DNA of 63,502 nucleotides, filler included. It is 10 parts of 10 records of this genome, joined end to end, with 100 filler letters (N's around TTAATTAATTAA, not from the genome) between each part and the next. Parts side by side here need not be neighbours in the genome. Positions count along the whole stretch, not along the records: positions 6,534 to 15,429 come from SRR15195285_709; 9 more parts are not named here. One strand, written 5' to 3'. This document shows positions 6,434-63,283 of this stretch, in pieces (position 1 is the first letter of the stretch; the number at the start of each line of letters is the position of its first letter). Position numbers and translations under genes: made by a program. The notes beneath the pieces were generated by a model. The model was not told the DNA's origin, did no database searches, and saw only the letters and a list, made by a program, of their open reading frames with translations.

Positions 6434-6533
6434 NNNNNNNNNNNNNNNNNNNNNNNNNNNNNNNNNNNNNNNNNNNNTTAATTAATTAANNNNNNNNNNN
6501 NNNNNNNNNNNNNNNNNNNNNNNNNNNNNNNNN
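6434..6533. other. Artificial contig linker
   Basis: N-run, then TTAATTAATTAA (stops in all six frames), then N-run; 100 nt in total. Confidence 0.97.
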
Positions 6534-6679
6534 GGCGGCGGCGGTGGCGGCGGCGGCGGCGGCTGCACGAGGAGCGGTTTGAGCAGCTGGCGGTGCGAGA
6601 TGTGCTGGTCGGTGATGGTGCTGGGCAAGGGCGCGATCTGCTGAGCGGCGGCGAGGGGAGGGTGCGCTGCAGGTGTGCG

Positions 6680-9600
6680 ATGGAGCTCTCGCTGGGCGAA
6701 TGGCTTGGCGAGCACAAGGCAGCCGAGTACGAGGCAACGCTGCGTGCCGAGGGCTGTGAGTCCGTCGAGGTGCGCGTACGCGATATCGTCAGCACTGCGT
6801 TTGAACGACAAGCCTTTGCCTGCCCTTCTGAGATCCGCCGCGATGCCGCCGCGCAACAGGACCTGGTCGATAGCGAGCTGACAGAGCAACACCTGGGCGA
6901 ACTCGGTCTGAAGATGTTCGCGAAGATACGCGTCTGGGGCGCCATCCAGAGCCTGAGGCGGGCCAAGCGACCGCAGCTGGAGCAGCCGCCTACGCCGCCT
7001 GACGCCGCCAGCGCCACGCTCGAGTTGACGTCGCGCCTCCACTCGAAAGTCCCGCGGTTCAATCGGGCCGATCCATCGGCCAGGTCGCTGACCTGGTCGC
7101 AAGCCTCGCAGGCCGATTCGCAGCTCGAGAGCGACAACGCGCCTGCCGGCTGGCGACAGACAAGGCCGCGCAGCCCAAACGTCGACGAAGTGGAGGCCGA
7201 TGCGGACGGGCGCCCTGCGAAGGTACCCCGACACGATGTGGACGAGCGTCCGGCGCAGGATGCCTGCATCCCCGATGAAGAAACCCCGGACTCACGCGAC
7301 AGTGACGGTGCAGGCGCGTTCCCAGCCGTGCTCGATTCGGTGGATCAGAAACTCGTTCGGCTCAAAGAGCTGTACGAGAAGCAGCTGATCACTCGGGAGG
7401 TATACGAAGCCAAACAGAAAGAGCTACTTAACCAACTGATGCCACCGCCGTTGTCAAATGCGGAGCGAAGCAAGCGCTCGCGTGTCGAGCAGGTTGGCGC
7501 GGTCAGCCCGCACTATGATGGCGACGCTTCATCCATGGAGACTGCTACAAGCCAGGATGATGGCAGCCGGCGCAGTCCGCAGTCAGTTGCGCCATCTGCT
7601 TCTTCTGTTGCTCCTCCTGCTCACGCCAATGCGGCGGCGGCGGCGGTTGGTAGTTCTGCAGCAGTTGCGTTTGCGCCGCGGCGAAGTGGAGACCGATGGG
7701 GCCGGAGTAGGCGAAAAGTGATGGGATCACAGGACTCGAGCTCGCTGCCATTTGCTTCAGATCGCTCGCCAGACGAGGATCAACATACCCAGACAGATAG
7801 GCCTCCGCCACGTGCGGCCTCATCCTACGTGCCCAGTAGTACTCAGAACTCAGTTTCAGATTCCGAGAGCTCGGGCAACACCCCTTCTGCAGCTCGACGC
7901 GATCGCTGGAGCCGGAGCCGTCGTCGTGCAGAGGCATCGCGTACGATCATGCCAGCAAACGTAGCCGACGTATTTGCTGAGAGCAGCGAAAGTGCCGATG
8001 AGGCTTGTGCGGGTCCAGTCCTTGCCAACCGAACGCAAGCAGTGGAGACTACGGAATCCGAGAGTTTTAAAGCCTCAGCTAGCTCGGTGGATACCTCTGC
8101 CAGTTCAGCAGCATCTCTCAAATCTACTGCGGATGCTCAGCCTCAAGCATGCGATGCCGACGACAACTGGTGGGAAAGTAGCAGCGGGAGTGATACGGAA
8201 GACTTGCGTAAAGATGCGGATGACTCGTCTAGTCTCCGAGCATTACATGCGTCCTCTGTTGCGCGGTCACCAAATCATCAGCGTCATCGTGGCCGCAGTC
8301 CGTCTGCAGCTACTTCGGCCGTTCGCTTAGGAGAGGGCGCACACGCACCAGCAACAACAACTTCGCTGCAAGACGCACTTGTCACCATCAAATCTGAGAT
8401 CGCCCCAACACAGCCCTCTGCTTCTGCACTCAAATCTTCATCCTTTAGGACGGAAGCTGGCGATGGTATAAATAAAGGAAATGTTGGACGGGCAGTTGGT
8501 GCTGTTGCTAGTGGTGGTGGTCGGCAAGAAAACCGATCGCAGAATGGCACCGGTGTCCACGTGGCCGCAGCCTTCTCTCGAGCCCCAGCTGCCGAGGAGA
8601 GCGCCCGGATTGAAGTACAGGCTGCAGCTGCATCTGCCCCTGGCGGTCGAATTTTCACGGGCATGTCATTTGCTTTCCTGCTGGATCGTGACGGGCTACA
8701 GCTTGGCAAAGGTCGGCAGTTGATCTTCTCGAACCGAGTTCGAGAGTTGGGCGGCCTAGTGTACGACAAACTGCGACCAGATTCTACAACGCATATTGTG
8801 ACAGGTAAACGTCATGACCATCGCAAAATAATGGGATTCTTGTCCGGGATGGGCGTCGACACAGACCAGGCCAAGCTTGTTTCAGTAGTGTGTTGTGACT
8901 GGATTACTCAGTGTTTAAAGGTGAAGAAGCTTGTGGATGAGACTGATTATCTCTCTGACCTATCGTGCCGCCTGCGACCATACGCATGGAAGGTCCGACA
9001 GCAGCAGTCAGATGGGCCAGGCGCGCTCTCGGTGATCAACACGCTCACTGCAGGGGCGCGTGGTGCTGCCGTACTGGCCTGCGCACCTGCAGCAGTGCAA
9101 CGCGACCCTGGGTCGGAAGAAGGTCTCACTGACAGGGTGTCGGTGAAGCTGCGCGAGGATCAACTGACAAGTGGGGACCGCCAAAAGCTATCTGACGTCC
9201 GCCCTTCATCTCGCTACAGCAAAGTAGCCTTCTTGGATGTACACAGCAGCAGCACAAACAGAGAATATGATCGTGGAGCTGGTGAGATCAAAAATCTTAG
9301 CGCCCCTCCCGCACACATGACTGATATTGATGTGATGAAGTTTGTACGCGTGCCTGTGACATGGGAGGCAAGCTATCCTGAAGGTGCCCAGGCATCCGCA
9401 GCCAAGCACGCTGAGCTAGTCGGGCCGATCGAAAAGCTCCAGGGACTTTGGCAGCTTGCGAAGAGATGGCAAGAGCAGTACTGGCAACAGCCGCTGGCGG
9501 GTCGCAAAATTGAGACGGACTTTCCATACCCGCTGGCATGTTTCACCCGAGGGCGGACTGACGGCCACCTCAACTTCGAGCACGACAGTATGCTAGGCAG

Positions 9601-12293
9601 CGATGCGACCTACGGACAAGGAACGAAGCCTGCTGTCTTGATTGTAATTGACCCGCAAGAGTACGAGGCTTACCACGGTCACTGGCCGCACCACCTCTTT
9701 TTCTTGTTGCCCGAAAGCAACCGCGGTGTTGGGTACGCCCGGCATGTGTTCAAGGAGTTTGCGCTGAGTGGTCGTGCAGTGCAGGACCAGACGAAGCTTG
9801 CGTTTCCATTCTACTACGAAATTGACGATCTGATGTACCATTTCCGTGAGCTTGTGCGCGACGACAACGGCGTCAAACAGTTCGGCACGAAATCACGGCC
9901 GAATCTGCTTCGCTCTATGCTCAGCCTTCAACGACTACCTGACCTGCAGAAGTATGGACTGCTTGGTGTGGGAAGGGACCGAGGACCAATTGCGGGGAAG
10001 GCGAACGAGTTTGCGGTCAACACAATGTCCATCTACAAGTTTCGCCTCATCAATGTCGATCTTACTCGGGATGTGCACTACGTTCCACAGCTGAAGAAGT
10101 TCGAAGACATAGCTTTCAACTACCAGCTGCTTAAGGACGGTGGAGGTGCTGGCTCATATATACCGACGTTTAAATCTTTCAAGTTTGTTGCAAGGGCCTC
10201 GCTTCGGAGCGGTGGAGGTGCGGCCGCTGGGCGGCAACGCCTAACGCGTCGTTGTCAGCCCGAAGATCTGTTGGAGTCAGGGACCCAGCTCGATCAGCTG
10301 CGCGTTGAGCATCAACAAATCGTGCAGGAGCTGGTTCAGTGGGTGCGTGACAAGCAGGACGAGGATGTGCGCCGTGCCAAGCGGCGGCAAGACGCTATTT
10401 TGGCGGCCGCAGCAAACGGTGGCGCGACTCCCGCCGCTGCTGTAACTAGCACGGCCGATCTGAGTGATGACGAAGACGAGGAGGAAAACGACGATCGACG
10501 TCTGGACTTCTCGCGCGATGGGTTCGCATCACTGACTTCGAAGCTTTTTGCACACCAAAAGAGCGCAGTTCGATGGCTGGTCAAAGTGGAGAAGACCCCG
10601 GGCTTACACGGCGGCATTCTGGCAGACGAAATGGGCCTGGGCAAAACGATCACGCTGCTTGCCCTCATTGCGGGCAATACTCCGGCAAATCGAGATGGCA
10701 GTCGACTGCCAACATTGGTTGTGTTGCCGCTCTCACTACTTAACCAATGGGACCGTGAAATACGGATACACACGCATGGTCTGAAGACGCTTGTGTACTA
10801 TGCCGAGGGGCGCGCAGCGAGTGCCACACAGCTTGCAGAACACGAGATCGTGCTAACGACGTACGATGTCCTCGTAAATGACGACGAGTCGTCAAACGTG
10901 GATGATGGGTCTCATTCCCAGGCGTCACAGGATATCTCACGCGGTGCGCTGCGTGGCGTTAAGTGGCATAGGCTTGTCTGTGACGAGGCTGCATTTATCA
11001 AAAATTTAGATACGCAGCGGGCCAGGGCAGTGTACCGGCTGAAAAAGTCACATGTGTGGCTCGCGACTGGCAGTCCCGTGCAAAACAATATCAAGGAGCT
11101 GCAGACACTGTTGCGGCTGTGCAATTTCAGCGGGTCTTTCGTAGACCGGGACTGGCGTAGCCTTTGCAGACACGTCATGCTGCGGCGCACGATGGCATCA
11201 GTAGCTGGCGAGGTTGGCTCTGCAGGCAGCGGCCTGAAGATGCCAAAGCTTGAGGAGACGACGGTCACCTTGAGGTGGATCACTGATAAAGAGGGTGACA
11301 CGTATGAAAAGCTTGCATCCAAGGCTAAGGCTGTCAAAGGTGCCGTACATCACGAGCTGCTGTCGAATGTGATGCGCATGCGCCAGGCATGTAATCACCC
11401 GAGCTTGGCCACAGTGGTGGACCGGGAGGATACAGTGGAGGTGGATGAACACGTTGGTGGCGGGCCCGCGGCAGGAGCTGCAGCGAACAGCTTTGCCCTG
11501 GACGCTGAGGGCAGTCTTGTCGAGAGTGATGACGAGACCATTGGAACAAGCGACAGCAAGTACGAGTGTGCGAAACTGACAGCTTTGATGAAGGTACTAG
11601 ATGAGGCTAAGGTGCGAGTGGGCCCAGCAGATATCATTTCTACGCTTGCGTTTCTTGCGTTGTTTGCCTCGTTTTGATATGTGTGCGTGTTTCGCTTTAG
11701 GTGTCTGGGGAGAAGGTCCTCGTGTTTTCGTTCTTCAAGCGTTTTCTTGACCTGGTCGCTGTTGCACTGGTGGAGCGTAACATCGCGCCAAACCGGATCG
11801 TGCGACTGCACGGATCAATGCCCGCACATGGTGAGCCGATTGTGGTCTGTCATTATCGTTGACTTCGCTGCTTCTTGCGTCACACTGTACCTTCTCCTAA
11901 TGCTGCCTTGGGCACCGCTTGAGATTCTATTCCTGACGATGTGGCATTGCTGGCGCAGCTCGTGACGCTGAAGTGCAGCGTTTCCGCACCGAGCGCACAG
12001 CAGATATTTTCCTGATATCGACCAAGGCAGGTGGTCTGGGACTCAATTTGACCGCCGCTTCAACTGTCATAATCCTCGAACCTGGCTGGAATCCAACCGA
12101 CGAGGAGCAGGCTGTGCGTCGGGCGTATCGTATCGGGCAGCTTCGTCGTGTGCGTGTTGTGCGGTTTGTCATGCACAACACGATCGAGCAGCAAGTGGTG
12201 CGCTTGCAGAAGGAGAAGCAGACGCTGGCTGCCAGCGTCCTCACGTCGAGTGCGCTGCACCGCATGATCCAACATTCGCAAGAAGCAGCATGA
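6680..12293 (+). CDS. SAM-SHOCT-BRCT-GREB1/TAGT-like glycosyltransferase-SNF2 ATPase/helicase-C fusion protein
   Basis: Exons about 6680-6769, 6860-11611, 11701-11830 and 11959-12293. SAM: LGEWL..YEATLRAEG..E|DL..LTEQHLGELGL. SHOCT: LKELYEKQLITREVYEAKQKELL. BRCT: IFTGMSF..GG..THIVT..DWITQCL. GT domain ~9520-10220. SNF2 motifs: LFAHQ, GGILADEMGLGKT, DEAA, TGSPVQN, QACNHP, KVLVFS, STKAGGLGLNL, WNP, QAVRRAYRIGQ. Confidence 0.85.
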
Positions 12294-12454
12294 ATGGCGA
12301 TTGTCGAAACGTGGTGGTCGCTGTCGACTGTGCAGGGGTCGATGCTTGGTTGTTGCAACCTCAATACAAAGAAAGTCAGTGACTTTCTGCGTGCGCTCAC
12401 TTGCGCCACGCATTACACTACACGCACACGCGCGCTCGTGGTCGCCGGCGTTAG

Positions 12455-12976
12455 TTACTCTCCATCACCGCCAAACAACGAGTAGAAGAGCATGACGAGC
12501 AGCAGGACCACAACCCCGGCGATCGCTCCTGTGAGCTTCCAGTTCTTGAACATTTCTGCCTTCTTCGCTTTCGTTGCGTCCAAATTGAAGGCTTTCGACT
12601 GGCCTTTCATCATCGCTGCCTTTTCCTCCACCTCTTGCGTAGACTCGATGTTGGTTGCTAAGCTAGTGATATTATCGCTCATCACCTGCTTGCCCACCTC
12701 TACCCCAGCTTGCACCGCCGCGAGCTTGTCGGCAGTCTCCAGCGGAGTTGTCTCCGTCGAGACCTGCAGCACATGTCAGCTCTTCGGTCAGTCAGGCAGC
12801 GACCGAGTGGGCGAACACAAAGGATGCAATTCCATGCTACTACTGCGCCGAACACAGCACCACGCAACGGATGGGGCTCGTGGGTACACGACGTGTGCAG
12901 CGCTTCACACCCGCGCGCGCACACGCACACATACCTCCACAGAGTCTCGCCCAATGTCCTCCAGTCCCTGCGGCAT
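12455..12976 (-). CDS. Short R-SNARE (synaptobrevin/VAMP)
   Basis: Exon 1 12976-12935 (MPQGLEDIGRDSVE), GT-AG intron, exon 2 12763-12455. SNARE coil VQAGVEVGKQVMSDNI..KSKAF-like, then KNWKL and a C-terminal TM helix. Confidence 0.8.
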
Positions 12977-13881
12977 CTCGACCGTCCTGCAAGCGACTCC
13001 GACGGACGCGACCGGGCCAGCCAACCACCCGCAGTCTGTGATCGCCTTAGCCCGTCTGCGTTCCGTCTGCCGTCGACGACTGAAGGCCGACAGAGCCAGC
13101 CAGCGATCCTCGCCCGCCGAGCGCCAACGAGCTATCGATACGGCTGCGTGGTCGGGAGTGTGCGTCGAGCGAGCGAGCGCGCAGCGATGATCTCGCTCGC
13201 GCGCTCGAGAACGTCAGCGAGAACGACACCACTCACCCGCCGGCGCCACGGCGCCACCGTTCGCGTTCCCACGTTCCGCAAGAATCAAGAATCATTAACG
13301 GTTCCGGCGGAATCTGATTCAGAGGGTGCAGGGCTCCGGGGCGCTCAGCAACCATCGCCATTTTTTGCCTCATTCGGTGCACCTAGGGCGTGACTCCCAG
13401 CAGCCGAGAGTCGGCCAGTGACCCGAGCACTTCGCGCCGTCTAGCACGCCGTATTCGCCCTCGCGAGCTGATAGCTAAGCACGCCCGCCCAGAACCACGA
13501 CGACAGGCGAAATAGCAGACGTCGGAGACGTACAGAGGCCTGCGACGACAACTGCACGATACCATGGCGCAGCCAGATCTAGTACGATGTCGTGTCTACA
13601 GGTACGGTAGTCTAGAGCTATCGAGTGTGACCCAACAGAGTCGCTCTTGTGCTACTTCTAGCTCCTGATTTTGAAAGTGTTTCATCCACTCTTCCCCCAC
13701 ACCTCATTCGAAATAATGCTATATTGAATTTGGCTGTTCATGTGCATTGTAGTGAGTAGTGAGAACACGACCCTCTCTCTTTAGCTAGCTTCCCAGCTCT
13801 CTTGCGCACGCCGCGCTCATGTTGTTGGCAGTTTGTGGCACGATATGCTCCTACAGGAGCGTGGCACGCATAGTGCACGAA

Positions 13882-15090
13882 TCAGATCTTAGAGCTGCAC
13901 GGGCCACACCTGGCACTGCCGTCTACATCTTCGTCTTCAGGTACCACCACCACCTCTACCCACCAAGGATGCCTGCCTGTGCCATATCTCTTCATAGGTT
14001 CAAGACTCCCTGTCTCGACGTCAAAGCACAAGCAGGTGATAGTATCACACTCTTCCCCCGCGCTGTAGAGAAAACGTCCATTCCCTGGTTCAAAATCGAA
14101 AGAGCGTGGTGTAGCGTCAACCGTTGTGCAGCCTACGCGCGTCATCCATCCAGTGTGCTCGTCAATTGCAAACACGGCAAGCGAATTATGCCCTCGGTTC
14201 GCCACGACAAGCCACTTCCCGCTCGGGTGTATCACTAGTCGTGCAGCGGCACACTCCGCCGAGTGTTCGCTCGTGCCCCGCTCATCAAAATCATCGGGGT
14301 GCGACGAAACCGTTTGTAGGACAGCCAGCCGACCAGAATTGCGGTCATAGCTGTAGCACGTGGCGGAATTATCTTGCTCGTTGGAAGAGTAGGCGAAACG
14401 AAAGTCTGGGCGGAAGCGCAGATGTCGCGGCCCCACCTCGTCGCCCAATGCACGAGCGGCTGTCCTGTCGCCACCACGGACACACAGCGTCGGCACAGTG
14501 GAGTGAGGGATGAGCTGACCAGTATCGTCGTCACTTAGAGAAAACTGGTAGACTGCATCGCCAACTGGACCAGTCTCGCCTGGCCATGTACCACCAGCAT
14601 GCGGGATGAAGATGTGACGATTGGTAGGTCCTACTGCCACACCATGTGCATGCCGGGCGGTACGGACGACGCAGGACGCAGGACGGCGGGCGGGGGCTGC
14701 AGCGCTGATACCAGTTTCGGACCCATCATCAACGGAGTCAGTACCATTGCCCAGTGGGAATGTCGCGACGCAGCCGCTGCGGTAGAAGGGAACGATCAGA
14801 TGTTGGCCCTTGAGATCAGTCGCCAAATACGCTGGATCCTCGAGCCCTGTATCTAACACGTGCAGTGGCAGCGGCCTGCCAGCACTGTCGAGCTTGAAGC
14901 TGCATATGCGACCGGTGTCATGCGTGGCCACGTACAGAGTGCGCCCGTCAGGGGACGAGCCGATACCAGCTCCGTGACCGGGCAACGGCACACTACCGCA
15001 GAGCTCCAATTCTCCACGGTCGGCCTCATCGACACGGTACCACACCAGTGCATCTTCGCCGTACAGTGTGGAGTAAAGGAAGACCCCCAT
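13882..15090 (-). CDS. Lactonase, 7-bladed beta-propeller (6-phosphogluconolactonase Pgl/YbhE family), intronless, ends -SKI
   Basis: Motifs SPDGRTLY, PAYLATD, HAHGV, GPRHLRFRPD, HPSGKWLVVANRGHNSLAVF, TPRSFDF, TGRHPWWV. Confidence 0.88.
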   Translation of the reverse strand: MGVFLYSTLYGEDALVWYRVDEADRGELELCGSVPLPGHGAGIGSSPDGRTLYVATHDTGRICSFKLDSAGRPLPLHVLDTGLEDPAYLATDLKGQHLIVPFYRSGCVATFPLGNGTDSVDDGSETGISAAAPARRPASCVVRTARHAHGVAVGPTNRHIFIPHAGGTWPGETGPVGDAVYQFSLSDDDTGQLIPHSTVPTLCVRGGDRTAARALGDEVGPRHLRFRPDFRFAYSSNEQDNSATCYSYDRNSGRLAVLQTVSSHPDDFDERGTSEHSAECAAARLVIHPSGKWLVVANRGHNSLAVFAIDEHTGWMTRVGCTTVDATPRSFDFEPGNGRFLYSAGEECDTITCLCFDVETGSLEPMKRYGTGRHPWWVEVVVVPEDEDVDGSARCGPCSSKI

Positions 15091-15429
15091 ACTCGTAGGA
15101 GATCGGCCAACCTGCGTCGGTACTAGAGTCCTACAGCTGGACAGCTGTACGGGACCTGGATCGCGCCAGGCCAGGGATACTCAAGCGAGGTAGCCTGATC
15201 TAATTGCCGTAGAAGCTACGTACTCCGTCGCACGCGTCAGGGTCAGCACCGCGCGCGCGCGCGCGCGGCCACGCACGGGCGCCACGCACGCACCCGCGCG
15301 CGTTTTATTCATTTTTTCGTATTTTGACTTCTGGTCAACCTGGGTACTGCGAGCGCTGGGTGCTTCCTGAAAACTCGTAGGATAAATGGGGGACACAGGG
15401 ATACTGGCAAACGTGATTTGGCGGTCTTT

Positions 15430-15529
15430 NNNNNNNNNNNNNNNNNNNNNNNNNNNNNNNNNNNNNNNNNNNNTTAATTAATTAANNNNNNNNNNNNNNN
15501 NNNNNNNNNNNNNNNNNNNNNNNNNNNNN
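15430..15529. other. Artificial contig linker
   Basis: N-run/TTAATTAATTAA/N-run. Confidence 0.97.
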
Positions 15530-16045: not shown

Positions 16046-19000
16046 ATGATGAAGGCGGCGTGCTCGCTGCTGGCGGTGCTGGCCGCCGGGGTTTTCGGGC
16101 CGGGAGGGGTGGAGGGACAGACGGCGCATGTGGCGGGCGTGTGCGGCTGGGATCTGAACAGTGACGGGCTTGTCAGCACGAACGACTTGCTCTACCTGCT
16201 GGCGGTGTTTGGGGACGACGTGGGGGGCAACCCGTCCGTGGCCATCGCGGATGGCAACGGCGATGGACGGATCGGCACCAATGATCTGCTCGGTCTCTTG
16301 GCCTTCTTCGGCCGCTCGTGCGAAGACCTGGCCGCCCCCCCACCTCCGCCGCCCGTCACCCCAGAGGCCGCGGCCGCCGAGTTCGAGGCGGCGCTTGCGG
16401 CCGTTGCCAACGACCCAACCGCGCCGTTGGTCGCCATCGCCTCGGTCATTACGTTCGAGGGCGACGTGTCCATGGTGGCCGAGGGCCAGGCTCGCGACGA
16501 GTTCGAAGAAAGCTTCACGATCAACATGGCTGCATCTTTCGGAGACGGTGCGCAGAGACGAGCCTCCGCGCTTATCTGGGGCGCTTCGCGCGCGGGGCGG
16601 GGGCGTAGGGAATGGAAGGGAAGGGAGGGGTGGGCAGCAGCAGCGACAACACCTCACGCGCTCTTACAGCTGTACAAGGTTCTGCGTTTAACACGACTGT
16701 GCTGTGATGGTCGCAGGCAGCACTGTCACGCCCGAAATGGTGGTCGTGGACGAAATACGCGGTGGAAGGTAAGGCATCCCATGTCTCGCAACTTGTGATT
16801 CTCTCAACGCCAGTCAAGGCTCCTCTGACCCTGCAGAAATCTGCGCCGTGGTTTGACAGCATCGTAGTGCTGTTCCACATCAACGTCCCCGAGGCGCTTG
16901 CCGACACTGGCACTTCGCTGGTCCAAGGGCTCATAGACTCGGGCGAGACCATAGAGATCTCAACCTCGTTCTCTTCCTTTGCCGCCGACACAGCGACTAT
17001 GGAACGCCCGACAGTCGCGCCAGCGACTGTCGACTGCGTCGGATCTTGGGTGGCTGATGGAGAATGCAGCGAACCTTGCGGTCCTGACGGAGTCGTGAGC
17101 AGCTCGTTTGTCGTCACGCTCGTAGCCCAGAACGGCGGCGCCGATTGCAACGCAGCGGATGGTGACACTGCCACTGAAGCTTGCAACACGAACGTGCAGT
17201 GCCCGATTGATTGCGATGGTGTGTGGACCGAGTGGTCTGTCTGTCCAGTTCCGTGCGGCGGCGGGACATCCATCCGATCCTACACCATTCTGGCTGAGGC
17301 ACAGCACGGAGGCACATGCGATCTAGCAGATGCAGTGGAGACCCAGGACTGCAACACCGACCCGTGCCCGCCCCCGCCCGCGGAGCCGACCGACTGTGTC
17401 GGAGGTAAGCACGCACTCACGCCCCTGGCCGTCGTGCCCGAAATACACCTAAACCCTTCCATTTTTGTGCAGACTGGGGCGAGTACAGCGCCTGCAGCCA
17501 CCCCTGCGCACCAGCCGGCGAAATGACGCGCCAGTTCGACACCACCGTGGCGGCATGGGGTGGCGGAGCAGAGTGCATGGGAAATATCGCCGTTGGCAAG
17601 CGGTCGAGTGCCAGCTCCGAGGCCTTCGGTGGGTTGGCGTGGAAAGGAAACGATGGAAATACGAACGGCAACTACGGCGGCGGAAGCTGTACTCACACCC
17701 AGGGCGGGCCGAGTTGGTGGCAGGTCGACCTGGCCGGTGTCTACAACATCTCATCTGTCGAAATTTACCACCGTTCTGGCATGTGCGGGTCAAATCCGTG
17801 CGCGGCTCGGGGGGCGAACTCCAAGGTCTACATCAGTGACACGCCGGACTACAGTACGGGCTCAATGTGTGATATGGAGGGATACACCACCGAAACACCT
17901 TCCAGCGAAATCTCGTGCAACATGGCGACGGCCCAGTATGTTACCATAGCGCCAGTCGTTACTGTGTGTGAGGTCGAGGTCAACGTTCCGCTCCATGCGG
18001 GTCGCGTCGACACGCAGCCATGCAACACCGAGACCCTGTGCCCGATCGACTGCGAAGGTTACTGGCGCTCCTGGAGTTTGTGCTCCGAGACGTGCGAAGG
18101 CGGCACACAGACGCGGTATTTCGAAGTCACGACCCCGAATCAGCACGGCGGACTGTGCCCTGAAACCGACGCGGGGACACAGGAACAGGAGTGCAACACC
18201 CAGCCCTGCCCAATCGATTGCGTGGGCGAGTGGCAGGATTGGAGCGACTGCTCTCTCGCGTGCGGCGGCGGCGTTCAGACTCGCGGCTTCACTATCACAC
18301 AAGCAGCACAGTTCGATGGCATCTGTACACATGAAGGCGTCACTCAAGAGCAGGCCTGCAACCAGATTCCGTGCTCGCCAGACGGCACACCCGCGGAAAT
18401 TGTGCTGGCAGACGGCCTTGAACTTCAAGCCAATCTGCAGTACGATCTGCCGTTCAGCGCACCGAACATGCTGGCGACGCTGTGGCGTGTCGAAGCTGAT
18501 GCCAGAGAGTACGAGGTTGGTCGCAGCTATGATGCCAATGAGTGGGAAGGGGTGCCGCCGACCCCGCTGAGCTTCGACTGCTCTGCTGGCGATAAGTGCC
18601 AGGTTGTTCTACCAGCGGACGGCTCGGGTGGTGACGTTTACAGGATCGACGTCATCGAACGTGATGATAGCCGCACGGATGACATGATTCTGGCCCAGTT
18701 CCTGATGAGTGCAACCTTCGGACAGACTCGCGCCTCGATTGACCAGATTCGGAGCATGGGCTCTACCAACGACGAGCGAATTACTAACTGGCTGGATGCT
18801 CAGATGTCGCTGCCTGCTGGCCTGCATCGAGCATACTGGCGTAGAAACGTGAACACCCCAGTGAGCACGCCGAATCGTCAGTCGGGACCTAGCCACCCGT
18901 GCCAAGAAAACAGCCTGTGGCATCGATTTGCATTCTCGGAGAGGGACCAGGGCAGAATCGTCGATGTGACGGAAACGACAGAGGGCTACAGTCTGTCGAT

Positions 19001-22000
19001 CAACGGTGTTGTGCGCACGGAAGTCGCGGCAGCCGATGTGGACTTCAGCGGCGCGGAGCCACCTTACTACATCTGCAAGGTGAACATGCCAGCAAAGATC
19101 GGAGTTGGCGGTCACGTTGCCATTGGCAACTCCGACACCTGCGACTCAAATGCACACAACAACGTGCTAAACGATCTAAACGGTGCCCCTTTGGCCCGCT
19201 GGGAGCAGCGGGTTGTTGGACCTGTGAACATCGCTAATCCGGCGATCAGCTTCTCCACAGAGCCGGACGGCGCCATGATTTTGAGTGAGGCCGATGCCGT
19301 CCTGGTGGACGGCGCGGACCCGGATACGAAAGTCATCCAGGCGCTCAATGTTGTCTGCCCGCTTACAGACGTGGGCCCGGAGGACGAAACGTACATGCGC
19401 CATGGTGACACTTACTACAGGCACATCCCGACGTCTCGTTTCCTCGAAAATACCCTTGAGAATCCGATGACCACTCCACCGGACTCGTTCGCGTTCTCGC
19501 CTCGTCTGTATGGGGACTCGGTCTGCCCGAACGTGCCGAAGACGTTCCTCAATCGCGACACGTGTGTCCGTCGACCGGAGTGTGTTGGTCCCCTCGAGTA
19601 CTCGGACACAGAGCTCGTGCTGGACGAAGCAACGATCCTGGCGATGTACTCAACGTCGGCAAACCGTCACGTGCACTACGTCGACGGCCTCGAATTTCAG
19701 CGCGGCCAGCGCAGCGGATACAATCCGTTCGATCCGGCTATGCCAGACCTCAGCGGTGGTTACGGAGCCAAGGGCCAAATTGGCGCGGGCACTCTGATGG
19801 TGAGCCCTTGCGCTGGCTCCTCGCGCTGGCGCAGCAGCCCTGGAGCCTGCGCGGCGGAAACTGCCCTAGGTGATGACACCAAAGCTTCAATCCGATCAGC
19901 GATCCAAACCAGCGAAGATACCAACCCGCTGGTGAAAGATCTCGTCACCATTGCCGGCGTCTGCAGCGGAGACGACGTGATCGGGGCGGCTGTAACAGTT
20001 GGGGATCAATGCTGGGAACACACGCACCCCGCCAACCTCAACGTGATCGATTTCACGCAATGGACTGTTGGCAACGCCCAAGTCCAGAGTTACTTTAATA
20101 CTATCAGAGAAAGTCCAACCGCCAAATACGCGTGGAACAACGAGGCTGCCTACATGTTCTCGCTTGAGCAGGATGGTGCTGCTTGGAACGCATTCATCAA
20201 CGCTTACACGCGAATCTATCAGGACATGAAGATGAAGCAGGCGATGGGGCTACCCACCAAGTGGAGGGGTGCTGGCTGGGTGATGGGCAGGCTCGGAGAT
20301 ACCATCTCGTTCAACGACCTGACCCCCGAGTTCCAGACACCAGAGTTCGCTGCCTATGTCGGTGCAACTGTCGTCGGCGGCGGCGAGTACGACGGCACCG
20401 AAGCGTGTGGATCTCCGGGTGAAGCTGCTAGCGACGCTTCGCTCGGCATGAACTACGGCAGCTATGGCGTCGGGCGCCTGGTCGGAGACGTTGGGGCCAC
20501 ACAGTTCTATAAAGACGCAGGTCAGCGAATCAAACAGTCAGGCGGAGACGACAAGTCGAACCTGTTCACGAACGTGGTGGTGAAAGCGGACGATCAGTTG
20601 CGCCAGCGCGTGGCATGGGCATTCGCTCAGCAGCATGTTGTCTCGCGAACTGCGTTTCCGAGAATCCATTCATCGGAGGGTGAGATGTGGCCTCAGTACA
20701 TGGACATTTTCGTGCGTAACGCTTTCGGCAACTTCAGGGACATCATGCGCGAGGTTGCGTACAGCCCGATGCAAGGCAAATACTTGACGTTCCTGCGCTC
20801 GATTGCTTACGCCGCGTCGGGCAAGTATCCTGACGAGAACTTCGCGCGCGAGTTCATGCAGCTGTTCACAATCGGAGTCAACAAGCTGAATTCTGATGGC
20901 ACGATGCAGGTCGATGCTGACGGCCGCCCCCTGGAGACATACGCCAACAGAGACATCATGAACTTCGCGCGACTATGGACTGGCTTTGTAGCGCCTAGAC
21001 CACGCAATAACAAGGAGGATCGGTGGGAAAATGGTGATGAGAACATACAAGACCCGATGGGCCTGCAGCCCCGCTGGAGAGATCCGTGGCCGAAAACGGA
21101 CCTCTTCGGTGGACACATCGGTGACGGGACGCCCGTTTGCAGCGACCTGCCGGAGCAGATGTTCCTTCGCCCAGGCGCCACGTACGTGTACCGCGGGTAC
21201 ACTGAGATATGCTCTGCAAGCTCGGTTTTGACAGGCGGCCAGGGGCTGGGCGGGTGTTCGGACAACACTGCGGATATGCCTCGGGGGCACTACGCCGGTT
21301 CTGTTGGGGCCATTGCGCTGTCAGACACGAGTGCACTCCGCCAGCAGCTGTGTGCGGTAGATGCCGATGGGGCGTGCGCGTTCCCCTCTGTGGTCACGCT
21401 GGCTGTTGTCCTGCCATGCGACGGCGACGAGTGCGATGTTGAGACCCTAAAGCAGGTCAAGGTCGAGACTGCAACAGAGGTCGTGTTCTACGAGTACGAG
21501 CCACCACCGTGCGTCAACCTGGCCTTCTACAACGACGCGAAGAGAGTCAGGGCCAGCAACCAATGGAATAAGCACATGTGCGCAAACCCGCTGACAGCAG
21601 CTGCAAGCTCGTCTTGCTGCAACGCGCCGGACAACCCAGGCCAACCCGCGATGAGCATGTGCAACTACAGACGCGAGCGCACGACGTACGCAGAGGCCGA
21701 GCGTCGGTGCGCCGCCATCCCGGACCTTGGCATTATCCAGTATCCCGGTGGCGCCGCATGGCAAAAAACCTACGAGCCGCTTCCTGGTGGTGGCGTCGGG
21801 TACTTCATGGCCGTGGACCCAGGGGGCAATCCTGACCTTAGCGAGTGCAGAATTGAAACCGACCCGTTGGAGGTCCGCTGCTGCTCAGACACTCAGGTCG
21901 GCAGCCTTTTGTCACCGGCTGGCGTTGACAGTGCAGAAGCAGCGGCCAACGTGGCACTGGGCCGTCCATGCACCCAGTCCTCTGTGCACGGTGGTGGCGT

Positions 22001-25000
22001 GTGCGAGCGCGCGTTCGACGGCAACACTGATGGAGCCTGGGCGGGCGGGAGTGTTATCCACACGGGGCGCGGAGGGGTTGACCAATACGTGCAAGTTGAT
22101 CTCGGTGCTGACACCCTTCTCGAAGGAGTCACTGTGTACTTCCGCACCGACTGCTGTGCCGGACGCCAAAATGGGGCGACGATCAAGGTATCGAGCACGC
22201 CCGACTACAGCGCGGCTGATGCGGTGCAGTGCGGTGGACAATTCACGCATGCGGGGATCGCGACAGGTTCGCAAACACTCAGCTGCCCTGGTGTGACGGG
22301 GCGGTACGTGACGCTCTACCAGTTCGACATGTTTATCCACATTTCTGAGATGCAGGTGATGGCTGCCCACACAGAGACGTGCTCGACGGCGTTTCCCGAC
22401 GGCATGCCCTTCAGCTCGGCAAGCTTGGACAACGCTGTCACGCAAGCGCAGCGTGTCCCAGATGCTCCGCTCTTCGCGGTACAGGAGGGACCTTGTGGCA
22501 GTGCGTACGAGCCCATCCTGACGTTGGAAGAATGCCAGGCCGCCCAGGACTACCTGCCTGAAATTGCTGCGTACGGCTGGCTTGGGGGACGCGATGCGCC
22601 TACTGAGCCTGGCGTGCACTGGATTGAGGGATGCAGCCACCGCAACACCCAGATTCTTTTCCACGAGCTCGGAGCTACCAGTACCACCGGCTGGGGCAGT
22701 AACTGGGCCCCCAACCTCCGCTCCATCTGCAAACTCACACAGGATGTCGACACCATAGGTACCTGCGTTCGCGCACGTACGAAATCTTTCGCCGAGCAGG
22801 TGTGCGAAGCCGAAGGCGCACGCCTATGTACCCAAGCGGAAGTGGCTGCGGAGTGCGTCTCCCAAGCGCCATGTACCTACCGCCAGGACCTGATGTGGAC
22901 CTCGGATACTTGCGTGCCGCCGGACACAATGGCGGTATGCCAAAACTACAGATGGGTGCCCCCGGCTGCACAGCCTGAAACGGAGTGTGGCCAGGAGGAC
23001 TGGATGTGGACCTCAGATTCTTGCAATCTCCAAGTCAACGTCAACGCGGACGGCGGGCTCAACGTCGTGCATGACGTCCCAGGTGTGCCAAACTACACTC
23101 CAGGTGTTGGAAACGGATATGTGGTCGAGACGGTCAGACTTGACCACATTAAGTCGCTAATGAAGTGGGACGTTCAGTGGGTAGATGGCCTGTTCCCAGA
23201 CCCAACCCAAGACTGCTTCGGGTCCTCGGATTGTCAGGTCCACGAGGCCGAAGGCCAGGCCGCGACGTGCCTGTGCTCAGTGTCCGTTGAGGACACTGCT
23301 CCGTTCACGGACATGGCAGCCCTGCCGTCTCGTGACGACGTGATGTCTCGTCTCAAAATCGGCGCTGCGTCCCCAGCGGTGTTCGATGCGGGCACCTACA
23401 CGCAGTGTGTCACCGCCGAGTGCGCTGCTGTGGCCGACGTGCAGATCTGGACCACCGCGGGTGTACTCGACACGGACACGATTTTCGCTGTCGAGTTCCA
23501 CACCGAAACGCGCTACTTCCTGAACAAGGAGTCTGCAGTGGGATTCAGCGGCTTCAGCTTCCGCAACCCTCCACAGTTCGCCAAGTGGGACGGCATGACA
23601 CTAGACACTGACGTGAGATACGAGACCGAAGCTCTGTTTGACAGCCTCCTCCATCATCCCAACACCGCGCCACATACTGCCAAGTCGCTGATCCAGCGAT
23701 TCGTCACGTCGAACCCTTCCACCCGCTATGTATCCGTAGTGTCCGAGGCGTTTTCGACAGGCACGTACGCCGGCCGCACCTACTCCGGCAAGTACGGCGA
23801 CCTCGCTGCTACTGTGGCCGCCATGTTGCTGGACCGGGAGTCGCGCTCCGCGGCTGTCAAAGCGGATCTCAACCACGGTATGCTACGGGAACCGTACGCT
23901 TCCCTCATCCACGTATTCCGCGCAATGGAGTATCAGAGCCCTTACGAGATCAGCATGGAAGGGCTGCGCAACAAAATCGGGCAGGAGCCGTACAACTCCC
24001 CGTCTGTCTTCAATTTCTACAGCCCGACGTACTCGCCGACCGGGAAGGTCGCTGACGCCGGTCTCGTTAGCCCCGAAGCAGAGCTGCTGTCTGCGCCAAA
24101 CACGGTCGGCCTGTTCAATGGACTCCACGCTCTGGTGGATTACGGTTTGTCCGGGTGCAACGGCGGCTTCTCTGCGTGGTACGCCGCAAATGATATCGGC
24201 GGAGTAGACTGCAACCACCAAGAATCCGCCCGAGAGGGCGCCCTTGGCTTGCTCTCGCTACCACCCCCGGAAGATCGTACAGCAGAAAGCGTGGTCGATC
24301 AGCTGGACCTGCTCCTCACCGGCGGACGGCTTTCTCCCGCGACCAGGGCGTCGATCATCGAGAGCGTCGATGCAGCGCACTACCGTAACATGTACATGGT
24401 CGCCCATGGTGCCGGCCTTGTCAACCCGGTGACAGGCGACACTGGCCTGGCGTCATACTGTGCCGCCAGTGGGGAGATTCACGACGTAGCCTGCTGCTCA
24501 GACGAGCGGGACACGCACGGCGACCTCCCGTACGGAATGGGCCACCGCTTTGCGGAATGCGCCGCTGTGACCAACCCGCTGTGGGTCGGATCCTGGGTCC
24601 TCGAAGGCTGCGGCGACTGTCCCAACAACGGGTGTAAAAATGCGTGCTGCATTGAAGACGTGGAGTTCCAGGAGGCTCAGGCTACGTGCGCTGCCGACAA
24701 CGCGCGCATGTGCACAGTCGAGGAGCTTGAAGCCGGCTGCGCAAGTTACAACGGCTGCGGCCACGGCGGTGACTTCCTCTGGTCTAACACGCCCTGCGAA
24801 GTCGACGCGACTGAGGATGCGCAGCGTCTGGCCGCTAAGCTCATTCTCGGCACAAGTGAATTCAAAACGACTGCTGACAACAGGCAGAAGGCAACGCCGC
24901 GTGTCCCACTACCGGCCGTAGAATCACAGGGTAGGCCTTACAAGGCCGTGGTCCTCATCTACTTGAGCGGCGGCGCGGACACGCACAATCTGGTCGTCCC

Positions 25001-26225
25001 TCACAGCAACTGCGATGCGTCCGTAGGGGACCTGTACGCCCAGTACCAGGAGGTGCGCGGAGTCGGAGAAGGCGGCGTGGCTCTGATGCCGAATCAGCTG
25101 CTCCCGATCGCGCTCCCAGACGGCACGCAAGTATGCAACACGTTCGGCATGCACCACAAGCTGGTCAACTTGAAGCAGATGTGGGATGCTGGCGACCTAT
25201 CGTTCTACGCCAACGTCGGCTGTATGATTGAGCCCCTCACCAAGGACGAGTACCGGGCCAAGACCAAACGTATCCCAAGCAACCTGGGCAGCCACGCTCA
25301 CCAGACGCAGACCGCTCAGAGCGTCTGGGCAAGCTATTCCGGCGCCAAGGGCATCCTGGGCCGGATGGTGGACGCACTCATGTCCCAGGACAACGCCTAT
25401 AGGTCCGCCTCGTACAGCATTTGGGGAAACCAGAAGGCTGTGCACGGCTACCGCGCCCCAACCTTCATCCACTTCAGGCGTGGAATTGCCCAGTTCAGGC
25501 AGTATGGCCAGATCGCGCGGCACTACCAGAATATCTCAGGTCTGGAGAGCATGTCGATCTTCGCTGACACTTGGGCTGAGGCGCTCGCCGACACGCTGGT
25601 CAAATCTCGATCAATCGCCGATCAGTACGCCGCGGGCTCCACCACGGAATCGTTCGGCATCAACTGCCCGTCCCTCGTCACCTGTAATCTGGCGGATCAA
25701 CTCAAGTCGGTTGCCCAAATGATGTCTTCGCGCGCCCTGACCGAAAATGAACGCGAGGTTTACCTCGTTTCCATGGGCACGTGGGATTACCACCAAGACA
25801 CGCGTGACAAATTCAGCAAGTCACTCGAAGTGGTCGACGCCTCGATCGCCGCGTTCAAGCGCGAGATGGATCATCAAGGCCTCTGGGACAACGTTGTGCT
25901 GTTGATCTCCTCTGACTTCGGTCGCACGCTCACGAGCAACGGGCTCGGGACCGACCACGCCTGGGGAGGCAACTACTTCGCTGTCGGAGGCAGCATCAAT
26001 GGCGGCCAGATGCTCGGCGTTTACCCATCGGACCTGCGAGAAGGGAACCCTCTTGACTCAGGCCGCGGCCGTATGATTCCTACCATGCCGTGGGAAGGCA
26101 TGTGGCACGGCGTTGCCCAGTGGATGGACATCGCGCCAGAAAAGATCTTGGAGGTTCTGCCCGATGCTGCAAATTTCGAGGCAGGAACGACGCTGACGAC
26201 TCGCGAACAGGCGTTCGTGAACTAA
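16046..26225 (+). CDS. Giant secreted protein (~3,280 aa): signal peptide, dockerin-like twin EF-hand, SEA-like, TSP1 repeats, F5/8-fucolectin domains, split DUF1800, C-terminal DUF1501
   Basis: Exons 16046-16547, 16717-16768, 16860-17404 and 17473-26225 splice in frame. TSP1: WTEWSVCPVPCGGG, WSDCSLACGGG. Fucolectin: SWWQVDL, NVALGRPCTQSS, RTDCC. DUF1800: QLRQRVAWA, PDENFAREFMQLFTIG, FVTSNPS, PSVFNFY. DUF1501: YKAVVLIYLSGGAD, SDFGRT, GTDHAWGG. Confidence 0.88.
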
Positions 26226-27204: not shown

Positions 27205-27304
27205 NNNNNNNNNNNNNNNNNNNNNNNNNNNNNNNNNNNNNNNNNNNNTTAATTAATTAANNNNNNNNNNNNNNNNNNNNNNNNNNNNNNNNNNNNNNNN
27301 NNNN
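27205..27304. other. Artificial contig linker
   Basis: N-run/TTAATTAATTAA/N-run. Confidence 0.97.
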
Positions 27305-31997: not shown

Positions 31998-32097
31998 NNN
32001 NNNNNNNNNNNNNNNNNNNNNNNNNNNNNNNNNNNNNNNNNTTAATTAATTAANNNNNNNNNNNNNNNNNNNNNNNNNNNNNNNNNNNNNNNNNNNN
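31998..32097. other. Artificial contig linker
   Basis: N-run/TTAATTAATTAA/N-run. Confidence 0.97.
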
Positions 32098-35989: not shown

Positions 35990-36089
35990 NNNNNNNNNNN
36001 NNNNNNNNNNNNNNNNNNNNNNNNNNNNNNNNNTTAATTAATTAANNNNNNNNNNNNNNNNNNNNNNNNNNNNNNNNNNNNNNNNNNNN
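35990..36089. other. Artificial contig linker
   Basis: N-run/TTAATTAATTAA/N-run. Confidence 0.97.
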
Positions 36090-43654: not shown

Positions 43655-43754
43655 NNNNNNNNNNNNNNNNNNNNNNNNNNNNNNNNNNNNNNNNNNNNTT
43701 AATTAATTAANNNNNNNNNNNNNNNNNNNNNNNNNNNNNNNNNNNNNNNNNNNN
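43655..43754. other. Artificial contig linker
   Basis: N-run/TTAATTAATTAA/N-run. Confidence 0.97.
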
Positions 43755-48582: not shown

Positions 48583-48682
48583 NNNNNNNNNNNNNNNNNN
48601 NNNNNNNNNNNNNNNNNNNNNNNNNNTTAATTAATTAANNNNNNNNNNNNNNNNNNNNNNNNNNNNNNNNNNNNNNNNNNNN
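48583..48682. other. Artificial contig linker
   Basis: N-run/TTAATTAATTAA/N-run. Confidence 0.97.
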
Positions 48683-53215: not shown

Positions 53216-53315
53216 NNNNNNNNNNNNNNNNNNNNNNNNNNNNNNNNNNNNNNNNNNNNTTAATTAATTAANNNNNNNNNNNNNNNNNNNNNNNNNNNNN
53301 NNNNNNNNNNNNNNN
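53216..53315. other. Artificial contig linker
   Basis: N-run/TTAATTAATTAA/N-run. Confidence 0.97.
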
Positions 53316-58590: not shown

Positions 58591-58690
58591 NNNNNNNNNN
58601 NNNNNNNNNNNNNNNNNNNNNNNNNNNNNNNNNNTTAATTAATTAANNNNNNNNNNNNNNNNNNNNNNNNNNNNNNNNNNNNNNNNNNNN
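58591..58690. other. Artificial contig linker
   Basis: N-run/TTAATTAATTAA/N-run. Confidence 0.97.
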
Positions 58691-60320: not shown

Positions 60321-63283
60321 TTAGTTGCTGCGAACGTACATGCACAGTCCGGACTCCTTGGCGACGATGTGACCGGTTGATGCTTCTACTGTGAACGCTT
60401 GGTTTCCTGCAGACGCTGGGGCATGACACGAGTATAGCTCAAGCATTTTGTCTGTCGCGTCGGTGTCAATGCACGACTTCGGCTGGGAACTCAGGGTGAA
60501 CTGCCCAGCACTATTCTGTGTCCACGCTTGCTTGCCGGCATACGCCGGGTCGTTGCACTTTTGCATCTCCAGTGCAGGCGTATGTGAGTCCACTTCAGAG
60601 TCCTTGCCGACTGTGACGCACATCGCCGGCGTCTTCCCAACCTGAGTGATCAGACCACTCTCAGCATCATAGGCGAACTTCTGCGGCTGAATCTGGTGGT
60701 GCTTGACGGTGTCGCATGCTTCTAGTCCAACATGATCTGATCGCGCACCCGAGGACAGGACCACTTCAAAGCCTTCTTTGCTTGCCATCGGCGGAAGTTT
60801 GATGTAAACGATCGCCTTCTCTTTTTTGTTGCCCATCGCGAGGTGATTGAAGAACCAACCCATGGGACGGTACTCAACGGCAGGTACAGATTTGAACTCG
60901 GGGATCTCAATGCCTTCCCCAGTCGTGGAGTTCCGTAGCGTAACCGAGATCGGAGCGGCCTTGGAGTGCACGTTCAATACCCAGGAGCGCTCTTGAAGCT
61001 GCCCAGTAAAGCCCTTGCCTGCAGCAGCAGATACCCTCACGACAACGTCCGGCTTGCGCTTGGTGCTGAAATTGGTCATGGCAGACATGCTGATCGTAGT
61101 GGTCGCGAACATTCCCGTCTCGTGCTGACGAGTAACGCCATCATCCTCGTAGAGCGAGAACGACGAGTTACCTTCAGGATACAGCTCAAGCGTCATCGGA
61201 TCATACGGTTTCGAGCCATTTCCAACAGTATGAAGCATAGGCGGAATCTTCGGAATGATTGCACCAGCTCTTGCGAACAGAGGCAAAGTATCCAGCGGCG
61301 CATTGTAGCCGTCGAGGGTGGAAGGCCCCTGATACACTGTGTCGTCCCAAAAGTCGTACCAGTCACCAGCAGGCAAATAGATGCCATCCCGAGTAGTCTC
61401 GTTACGGTACACAGGCGCTACGAGCAACCAATCACCGGACATGAATTGATACGCCGAACCTGTGTGATTGTCGTATGTGGAGAGGTCTTCTGGGAACTGT
61501 AGCGCCATCGCACGAACCGGCGGCATTCCTGTTTCGGCAGCGATCCGCGAGTACGTGTACTGGTAGGGAGTGAGAGCAGACTTGAGCTGCAGGTACATGC
61601 GGTTGATTGATGTATACGGCTCGCCATAAGTCCACGGCTGCTTGTCCGGATTGGCAGCCCAGCCAGACATGCTCATCAAAGTGGTCATCAGACACTTGAA
61701 CTGCAGATCACGCACGTATGTATGTGGCGAACCACCAAAGATACCATCGATGTCTCCTGACACATGCGCTTGAGCGGAGAAGCCAGTGCCGACGAAGGTC
61801 GTCAGCTGCCAGCGAATATACTCAAAAGATCCGGAGTCGTCGCCCGTCCACATCACAGCGTTGCGATGTGTGCCCGCCCAGCCACAGACCGTCCAGATGT
61901 ACCTCCGTGCGTCACTGTTGTCCTCGAGACCGTCAGCAACAACTTGCACAGAATCGAAAGCATATTGGGTACCACCATTTCCGATCCACCCCACATCTGT
62001 CTTCGCAATGCGTGTTCCGGAGCCAGACACCTCGCGTTTGATGTTCGGCAAGCCGGTTGAGGACCACAGTCCCGCCACGAATCCACGCTGGTTGAGTTCA
62101 GAAACGACAAAGTCCAGGTCGTCGAAGTCATGAGGGAAAGTTTTGGTGCCGTTGGGAAATGTGAAAGGACCCTCGCCGTAGCCGCAGCCGTAGCCGTCGT
62201 TCACAAGAAACCAGGAACCCGGCATCTCTTCTTCATGGAACTTGTCGGCAATGGCAATCACAGTGCGAGTAGAGTTGGCATGTCGCGGGTTGTGGTAGCA
62301 GTCGGAATCTCCAAGTCCCAGTCCATAAATCGGAACCATAAAAGGACGGCCCACGAGCTGGGTGTAGGAGTTCAGGACCTCCGCGAAATCTCCGACAAAA
62401 AAGTACGCATCGAAGCGACTCTCGTTGTGGCTGAGCTTGGCTGTGCCGTCAGAAGTTGTGAAGTCGTACGTGCCAGACGCCCATGTATTTCGGAAACTGC
62501 CGAAGCCAGCATTGCTCAAGTAGAATGGCACCGAGCCTCCTCCGTGCCCACCCCCGCCCTTCCCTGGGTCCCAGTCGAAGTTCTTGGACACCACCAGCTT
62601 CTGCCCTTTGTGCGAAAACCGTCCGTTCTGCATTCCACCACCAAAGAAGTGCGCGTCTGCAGGAGAATCTCCGGCTTGCAGAGATTGCTCAGTGGTGGTG
62701 GCGTTCCAGTGAATCGGGGCAGCTTCCTTCCACAGGAGCTTCGCCCCTGCGTACATGGAGAACGTGAGTGCCGGGTGCTTGTTGGCACGGAGCGTCACGC
62801 CAGTAGGGGAAGCCGCCCCTGCACTTATCTCGTAGTAGGTACCCTTGTCCTGAAAGCCCGCTTTGATCCCTGTGCTGTTGCCGATCACGATGCCCTTGGA
62901 CACACAGCCTGGATTCGCTGTGCAGGGCGTGTTCGGGCCCGCGGGGTCGGTGAAGTTGTCATTGACTCCTGCTGCAGATTGCGTCCCCACCCAGATCCGC
63001 GCGACCGAATGCGAGTGGAAGGAGACCCGCACGAGGTCCTGAGACGTGCACAGGCGGAGTCAGCAGTCGCACAGCATCAGTGCAGCACACTCAAACGGTG
63101 GTTGGCAGTGAAGGCGGGACGAACCTTCCCACAGGTAATCTCAACCGCGTCCCCCGCTGGCTTGATCGCCGTCACCGCGCCCAGCGTGCCGGGCTTGAAC
63201 TGCCCCTCCTCGCCGGCGACCGAACTCGCAGCGATCAGCGAGGATACGAGCCCAAAGCCAAGCTTGGCGAGCGCTCCCATCAT
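60321..63283 (-). CDS. Secreted GH31 glycosidase (alpha-N-acetylgalactosaminidase, Nag31-like) with C-terminal ricin-B/CBM13 lectin
   Basis: Signal peptide in exon 1 (63283-63125); intron 63039-63124. Motifs FFGGGMQNGRFSHKG, WFLVNDGYG, KTDVGW, WTGDD, DIDGIFGG, YVRDLQFK, LYEDDG. Ricin repeats QKF/QAW/NQAF with C-x-D pairs. Confidence 0.9.

Follow-up and report, generated by a model that had tools for sequence, protein, structure and literature searches.

To our knowledge, kinetoplastids and their kin are the only organisms in which nuclear DNA is established to be glycosylated enzymatically, and the TAGT family of glycosyltransferases is said to have been defined by Iyer et al. in 2013. Within the kinetoplastid base J pathway, JGT is described as glucosylating hydroxymethyluracil in double-stranded DNA (PMC10057400) and was predicted to be a TAGT-family enzyme (PMC10057400, PMC7968844); the SNF2 ATPase is carried by JBP2 rather than by JGT, as the first-pass annotation of the locus studied here had rightly stated, and is reported to be required for de novo base J (PMC10057400). 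The animal protein GREB1 is described as combining a zinc-binding domain with an inactive, circularly permuted SF2 (superfamily 2) helicase and a glycosyltransferase (PMC7968844, PMC6163654), so that the annotation's remark that no description of the architecture was known was an overstatement. Here we report on a gene located on one contig (SRR15195285_709) of a 63,502-nucleotide stretch of assembled DNA (hereafter the window), which is made of about 10 short contigs glued by nine linkers (each consisting of 44 N, ttaattaattaa and 44 N). Its predicted product joins a TAGT domain to a canonical SNF2 ATPase in a single chain; we document the domains, their order, their conservation within one chain and their intact catalytic signatures, and we tentatively propose that the protein glycosylates DNA.

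The TAGT domain was recognised by Pfam (PF20691, residues 952-1155 with numbering from the ATG at 6680, E = 4.8e-12, 46.7 bits versus a cutoff of 27.5), and the motifs from which the fusion had originally been noticed were located, together with the TAGT and SNF2 Pfam matches, in the continuous frame from which they had been quoted. An AlphaFold2 (AF2) model of the 300-residue segment spanning the domain, computed with 33 relatives, was confident (predicted local distance difference test, pLDDT, 91.9; predicted template modelling score, pTM, 0.91), and its Foldseek comparison against the PDB placed GT-A enzymes on top (84 matches at E <= 1e-3, among them B4GALNT1, an archaeal mannosyltransferase, the LH3 glycosyltransferase domain, TarP/TarS and SpsA). 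Against the viral models of BFVD, ranks 1-22 (E = 3.7e-13 to 5.7e-7) included 8 proteins named as TAGT-domain, 1 beta-glucosyl-HMC-alpha-glucosyltransferase (rank 12) and 8 unnamed ones, and proteins named GT2 appeared only from E = 2e-5 upward; the predicted structure is nearer to phage TAGTs than to generic GT2 enzymes. The sequence matches of the segment comprised GREB1-type proteins, and tblastn recovered a weak match (E = 5e-6) to a phage gene whose annotation reads beta-glucosyl-HMC-alpha-glucosyltransferase; searching the PDB by sequence with the TAGT profile yielded chance-level matches only (E = 0.16). The DD motif is the most conserved position of the domain and lies in the model at the end of strand 137-142, with D142 invariant and D143 at least 90% conserved across 34 sequences, and both at least 90% conserved in the 53 long relatives described below. 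Family membership and predicted fold together support the assignment to the TAGT/GREB1-type GT-A glycosyltransferases that the first-pass annotation had put forward.

The SNF2 ATPase fused to this domain is complete, as had been claimed, both by Pfam and by motif alignment, with its Helicase_C part distributed over two small 3' exons. Motifs I-VI are all present in the alignment (I, III, V, VI and the D-E of motif II being intact), and the Helicase_C motifs GGLGLNL and QAVRRAYRIGQ are found in exon 4. Among named SNF2 proteins, Rad16, Ris1, HLTF/CHR28 and TTF2 are the closest (26-36% identity). A phmmer search of the PDB with the SNF2 part indicated no clear subfamily (SMARCAD1, DDM1, SWR1 and ISWI scored about equally), NCBIfam returned just bacterial SNF2 helicase matches far below cutoff, and the ESM Atlas, queried with the TAGT and SNF2 part, contained only generic SNF2 clusters at scores of 0.79 or less, under the level of a lead.

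The open frame (6482/6593-11677, + strand) begins 146 nucleotides past an assembly linker, and its 3' end is intron-like read-through, the remainder of the helicase being encoded in two more small exons. The spliced coding sequence measures 5307 nucleotides with 0 internal stops, the donors of the three GT..AG introns are alike, and the start methionine is shared with the 99% and 93% identical relatives. The 30 codons of intron 1 are absent from four 93% relatives (P0004, P0011-13), in which the gap runs exactly from GT to AG, and in three further relatives (P0157, P0005 and P0006) the SNF2 lobe continues straight into Helicase_C, as it does in the spliced model. In run X1, 26 of 30 bins are covered by marine metatranscriptome contigs (about 99% identity), and one RNA-library contig begins within intron 1, at 6836; these contigs may stem from DNA or pre-mRNA and are no proof of transcription.

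The order TAGT to SNF2 recurs in P0004 (93%), P0157 (~81%), P0005 (58%), P0006 (52%), P0017 and P0085. The close relatives were drawn from NCBI (99%, with an unspliced and truncated model), ENA (93%, four contigs), a cluster (~81%), JGI (58%) and EukProt (52%), and some of them bear the labels Picozoa sp. SAG31 and Picozoa sp. COSAG06, with further fragments named COSAG05, SAG11 and COSAG06. P0017 and P0085 stand for the more distant TAGT-SNF2 proteins, to which the fragments P0016, P0023, P0097 and P0130 also belong. Judged by sequence comparison, independent relatives have kept the fusion, which is no artefact. In the TAGT tree, seven fused proteins fell within one group of 11 rows (Shimodaira-Hasegawa approximate likelihood ratio test, SH-aLRT, 87), and the five-member clade of the window protein received a support of 100; in the SNF2 tree, which also took in 116 other SNF2 proteins, they were again found on one side of a branch, with a weak support of 69 and with long-branch warnings. 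Both trees are consistent with, albeit no proof of, a single old fusion. A scan of metagenome contigs with P0005 revealed no orthologous locus; the single locus that matched (L001) did so through SNF2 alone, at 28%. The form combining TAGT and SNF2-rel_dom sits unnamed in public protein sets.

At E <= 1e-3 the TAGT relatives amounted to 129 representatives, and the 53 with at least 500 residues were scanned with Pfam. All 53 had the TAGT match, and 12 carried a helicase of one of three unrelated types (SNF2-rel_dom in 4, cpSF2-GREB1 in 5 and a type-I-restriction-like SWI2_SNF2 in 3); PHD, FHA and RAMA domains were encountered once each. These partners set the family in a context of nucleic acids or chromatin, which counts in favour of the DNA reading proposed below. 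Considering that three helicase types occur in these 12 proteins, and that GREB1 has a helicase as well (with a Pfam model of its own, PF20692), the joining of a helicase to TAGT is a recurrent theme. The named relatives include proteins of a dinoflagellate (Durusdinium) and of Amoebophrya. Other combinations were also observed in the family: P0060 consists of TAGT and a PHD finger, P0120 of cpSF2, a methyltransferase and TAGT, and P0082 of TAGT and an RSN1/PHM7 channel with 10 transmembrane segments (possibly a merged gene model).

The first-pass annotation had also placed a BRCT and a SAM domain in the protein; the SAM domain gained moderate support and the BRCT domain sub-threshold matches only. 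At E <= 0.1, Pfam matched neither of the two in the window protein. The intron-free N-terminus of the window protein resembles that of P0004, which matches SAM_2 below the cutoff (E = 0.0035; the window exons alone are too short) and for which 14 of 14 PDB matches were SAM-domain chains (best E = 7.9e-5). The disordered, low-complexity linker that separates the SAM-like from the BRCT-like domain (~590 residues) has no Pfam family except for a weak GvpG match (E = 0.047); the 93% relatives retain it, though altered by in-frame indels. It harbours a coiled-coil-like stretch, which presumably resembles a SHOCT-type motif, and two basic DRW[GS]RSRR repeats that could be nuclear-localisation or nucleic-acid-binding patches. 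For the BRCT-like region, the isolated piece of the window protein matched LIG3_BRCT (E = 0.031), RTT107_BRCT_5 (E = 0.05) and BRCT_2 (E = 0.13), all sub-threshold in Pfam, as was the match of the ortholog P0005 to BRCT (PF00533, E = 0.015). In a profile search of the PDB the top match was the Pol lambda BRCT (E = 0.0072), and ubiquitin chains ranked just below it. The AF2 model of this region (from a 5-sequence alignment) was poor (pLDDT 45.5), and Foldseek, queried with it, recovered neither a BRCT nor any match at E <= 1e-3; with a model of this quality, the outcome counts neither for nor against a BRCT domain.

We reason, tentatively and with somewhat more doubt than confidence, that a SNF2-driven TAGT glycosylates DNA, and that its likeliest acceptor is a hydroxymethyl-pyrimidine. 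One nuclear protein of ~1770 residues would bring together a SAM-like domain, a disordered linker, a BRCT-like domain, TAGT and a Rad5/16-like SNF2 ATPase. The SNF2 motor would bind duplex DNA and track along it, in the way that the SNF2 of JBP2 serves the hydroxylase when base J is made, and this tracking would let the attached TAGT domain reach chromatin; that domain would transfer a sugar from a nucleotide-sugar to the hydroxymethyl-pyrimidine and thereby leave a base-J-like mark, with the SAM and BRCT-like modules possibly recruiting or multimerising the enzyme.

Several observations weigh against such an enzyme. Motif II reads DEAA in 4 of 4 aligned members of the window's clade, and DESH, DEAH, DEAQ or DEGH in the distant TAGT-SNF2 proteins and in the kin around Rad16, TTF2 and HLTF. 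No TET_JBP domain was detected in the 53 window ORFs (open reading frames) scanned, a search confined to the window, nor was one fused to TAGT in any of the 53 long relatives. The RNA-library contigs (four runs of one study) displayed no splice joint, and one of 480 nucleotides (11685-12164) was colinear through the predicted intron 3; it may be an unspliced transcript or DNA carry-over, and an unspliced intron 3 would truncate the protein ahead of motifs V and VI. The BRCT-like domain, with its sub-threshold support, is probable only. Lastly, GREB1, the sole characterised animal TAGT, O-GlcNAcylates ER-alpha, a protein and not DNA (PMC7968844).

This last point, together with the helicase-type module that GREB1 also possesses (PMC7968844), speaks for the main rival, namely a chromatin-targeted protein O-glycosyltransferase acting on histones or on repair or transcription factors, with SNF2, BRCT-like and SAM modules that only bring TAGT to DNA or to phospho-marked sites. 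We regard it as possible, if on the whole unlikely: the BRCT-like, FHA and PHD partners encountered in the family are readers of protein marks, the lack of TET/JBP in the window ORFs and in the long relatives fits a protein acceptor, and histones exist in the organism (an H2A ORF lies within the window), whereas the window TAGT falls outside the GREB1 clade, phage TAGTs (a DNA glucosyltransferase among them) match its model best, and the ATPase motifs kept here contrast with a GREB1 helicase reported as inactive. Considerably less probable is a translocase of the Rad5/16, Ris1 or TTF2 type that acts in DNA repair or in ending transcription, and in which the glycosyltransferase-like domain would be a non-enzymatic module binding nucleotide-sugar or already glycosylated DNA. 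The identity of the nearest named SNF2 kin agrees with it and a BRCT-like domain suits repair proteins, but neither RING nor HIRAN had a Pfam match in the window protein, and the DD and other family-conserved positions are retained in the sets of 34 and 53 relatives, which is what an active enzyme would be expected to show. An artefact of gene model or assembly (two neighbouring genes or a chimeric contig), which the first-pass annotation had set as one of the outcomes that would undo its proposal and which the fragmentary, glued assembly and the lack of any spliced RNA contig or of one across the entire gene (four runs, one study) could suggest, is largely refuted and very improbable, as no stop intervenes between TAGT and SNF2, the same order is kept in ENA, JGI, EukProt and NCBI assemblies at 52-99% identity, and RNA-library contigs from two runs tile 9805-10670 but for 14 nucleotides.

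Neither the fold nor the family is new, nor is the notion of a TAGT linked to a helicase. In the full-text literature covered, which did not include the founding TAGT paper, no description of the TAGT plus SNF2/SWI2 architecture was found; what appears to be new is the union of TAGT with an apparently active canonical SNF2 and with SAM and BRCT-like modules. Returning to DNA glycosylation, the broader proposition that Picozoa-like and other marine protists carry a base-J-like glycosylated base, written by a single self-translocating TAGT-SNF2 enzyme, strikes us as doubtful, though worth stating for what it would entail: the first eukaryotic enzymatic DNA glycosylation system outside Euglenozoa, and a pairing of TAGT with helicases (three types) that would be a general design of DNA-sugar writers. 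For the search for sugar-modified DNA or chromatin among uncultured marine protists, the protein is a concrete candidate; its domains lend themselves to separate expression and assay, and it bears on the question raised by GREB1, whether helicase modules attached to TAGT are relics of a DNA-directed ancestry.

The features of the gene, its contig and the linkers are compiled in Table 1. Physical linkage to the TAGT-SNF2 gene extends over 6534-15429 only, and as the window is glued from contigs, gene neighbourhood across the linkers carries no meaning. Since genes for a synaptobrevin-type SNARE and for a lactonase share its contig, the TAGT-SNF2 gene is a cellular gene, toward which its spliceosomal-type introns also count; from the labels of the relatives we infer that the source of the window is probably a picozoan-like marine protist.

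Table 1. Coordinates of the TAGT-SNF2 gene, its domains and motifs, its neighbours on the same contig and the assembly linkers (positions along the window)
Feature	Position	Strand	Description or basis
Whole gene	6680-12293	+	4 exons, 3 introns, 1768 codons plus stop
Exon 1	6680-6769	+	first half of SAM-like domain
Intron 1	6770-6859	+	90 nucleotides, in frame, GT..AG
Exon 2	6860-11611	+	second half of SAM-like domain through SNF2 lobe 1
Intron 2	11612-11700	+	89 nucleotides, GT..AG
Exon 3	11701-11830	+	Helicase_C start (motif IV region), E 0.013; aligned block VLVFSFF
Intron 3	11831-11958	+	128 nucleotides, phase 1, GT..AG
Exon 4	11959-12293	+	Helicase_C motifs V, VI and stop codon; E 1.3e-13
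SAM-like domain	6680-6769 and 6860-6970	+	relative-based profile and PDB matches
Low-complexity linker, A/S/R/D/P-rich	6971-8641	+	composition
Coiled-coil-like stretch (LDSVDQKL...LLNQL)	7331-7438	+	in linker
Two basic DRW[GS]RSRR repeats	7691-7714, 7901-7924	+	in linker
BRCT-like domain	8642-8995	+	sub-threshold matches
TAGT glycosyltransferase domain, GT-A fold	9401-10300	+	Pfam core 9533-10144; AF2 (modelled segment); Foldseek
TAGT motif FTRGR	9542-9556	+	
TAGT motif WPHH	9683-9694	+	
TAGT motif GVGYAR	9725-9742	+	
TAGT motif EIDD	9818-9829	+	
DD (DxD-type), predicted catalytic/metal-binding motif	9824-9829	+	conservation and model position
TAGT motif FEDIAFN	10100-10120	+	
SNF2-related ATPase lobe 1	10553-11404	+	SNF2-rel_dom, residues 1292-1575, Pfam E 3.9e-45
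SNF2 Walker A GLGKT	10634-10648	+	
SNF2 motif II DEAA	10982-10993	+	
SNF2 motif III	11066-11086	+	
Synaptobrevin-type SNARE gene	12455-12775	-	same contig, downstream of TAGT-SNF2 gene
7-bladed lactonase gene	13885-15180	-	same contig, downstream of TAGT-SNF2 gene
Linkers	6434-6533, 15430-15529, 27205-27304, 31998-32097, 35990-36089, 43655-43754, 48583-48682, 53216-53315, 58591-58690		

Elsewhere in the window, a different contig contains an open frame of 2938 residues (17409-26222, +) in which DUF1800 and DUF1501, a pair that is usually bacterial, are combined with F5/8 type C and thrombospondin type 1 repeats. A GH31 glycosidase joined to a ricin-type lectin domain is encoded at 60324-63059 (- strand), and other ORFs of the window match histone H2A, anoctamin, protein kinase, GH3, GST and DnaJ.

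Set against the described systems, the window protein resembles the GREB1/GREB1L proteins of animals in that a TAGT-family GT-A domain and an SF2 helicase-type module are found in one long protein. The GREB1 helicase, however, is circularly permuted, reported as inactive and N-terminal to the glycosyltransferase, whereas in the window protein the glycosyltransferase precedes a canonical SNF2 with ATPase motifs; the Pfam domains GREB1_N, GREB1_2nd, GREB1_C and cpSF2-GREB1, present in the relative P0102, are all missing from it, and the two groups form separate clades in the TAGT tree. The Rad5/16-like SNF2 group, its nearest named kin on the ATPase side, is RING-bearing, in contrast to a window protein with DEAA and with neither a RING insertion nor a HIRAN match. 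Helicase-TAGT proteins of Durusdinium trenchii likewise unite TAGT with an SF2 ATPase in a marine protist, but their ATPase is a SWI2_SNF2 (PF18766) placed N-terminal to the glycosyltransferase, and their TAGT belongs to a separate clade. The best structural matches of the window TAGT, namely phage TAGT/beta-glucosyl-HMC-alpha-glucosyltransferase and TET-associated glycosyltransferase clusters, are stand-alone enzymes of ~230-310 residues, mostly encoded beside base-modifying genes, and differ from it in that the window protein is eukaryotic, multidomain and encoded with introns. With the base J pathway it would share the coupling of a DNA-modification enzyme to a SNF2 ATPase; unlike JBP2, the window protein has no Pfam match to TET_JBP, and where the base J pathway has its SNF2 on the hydroxylase, the window protein has it on the transferase.

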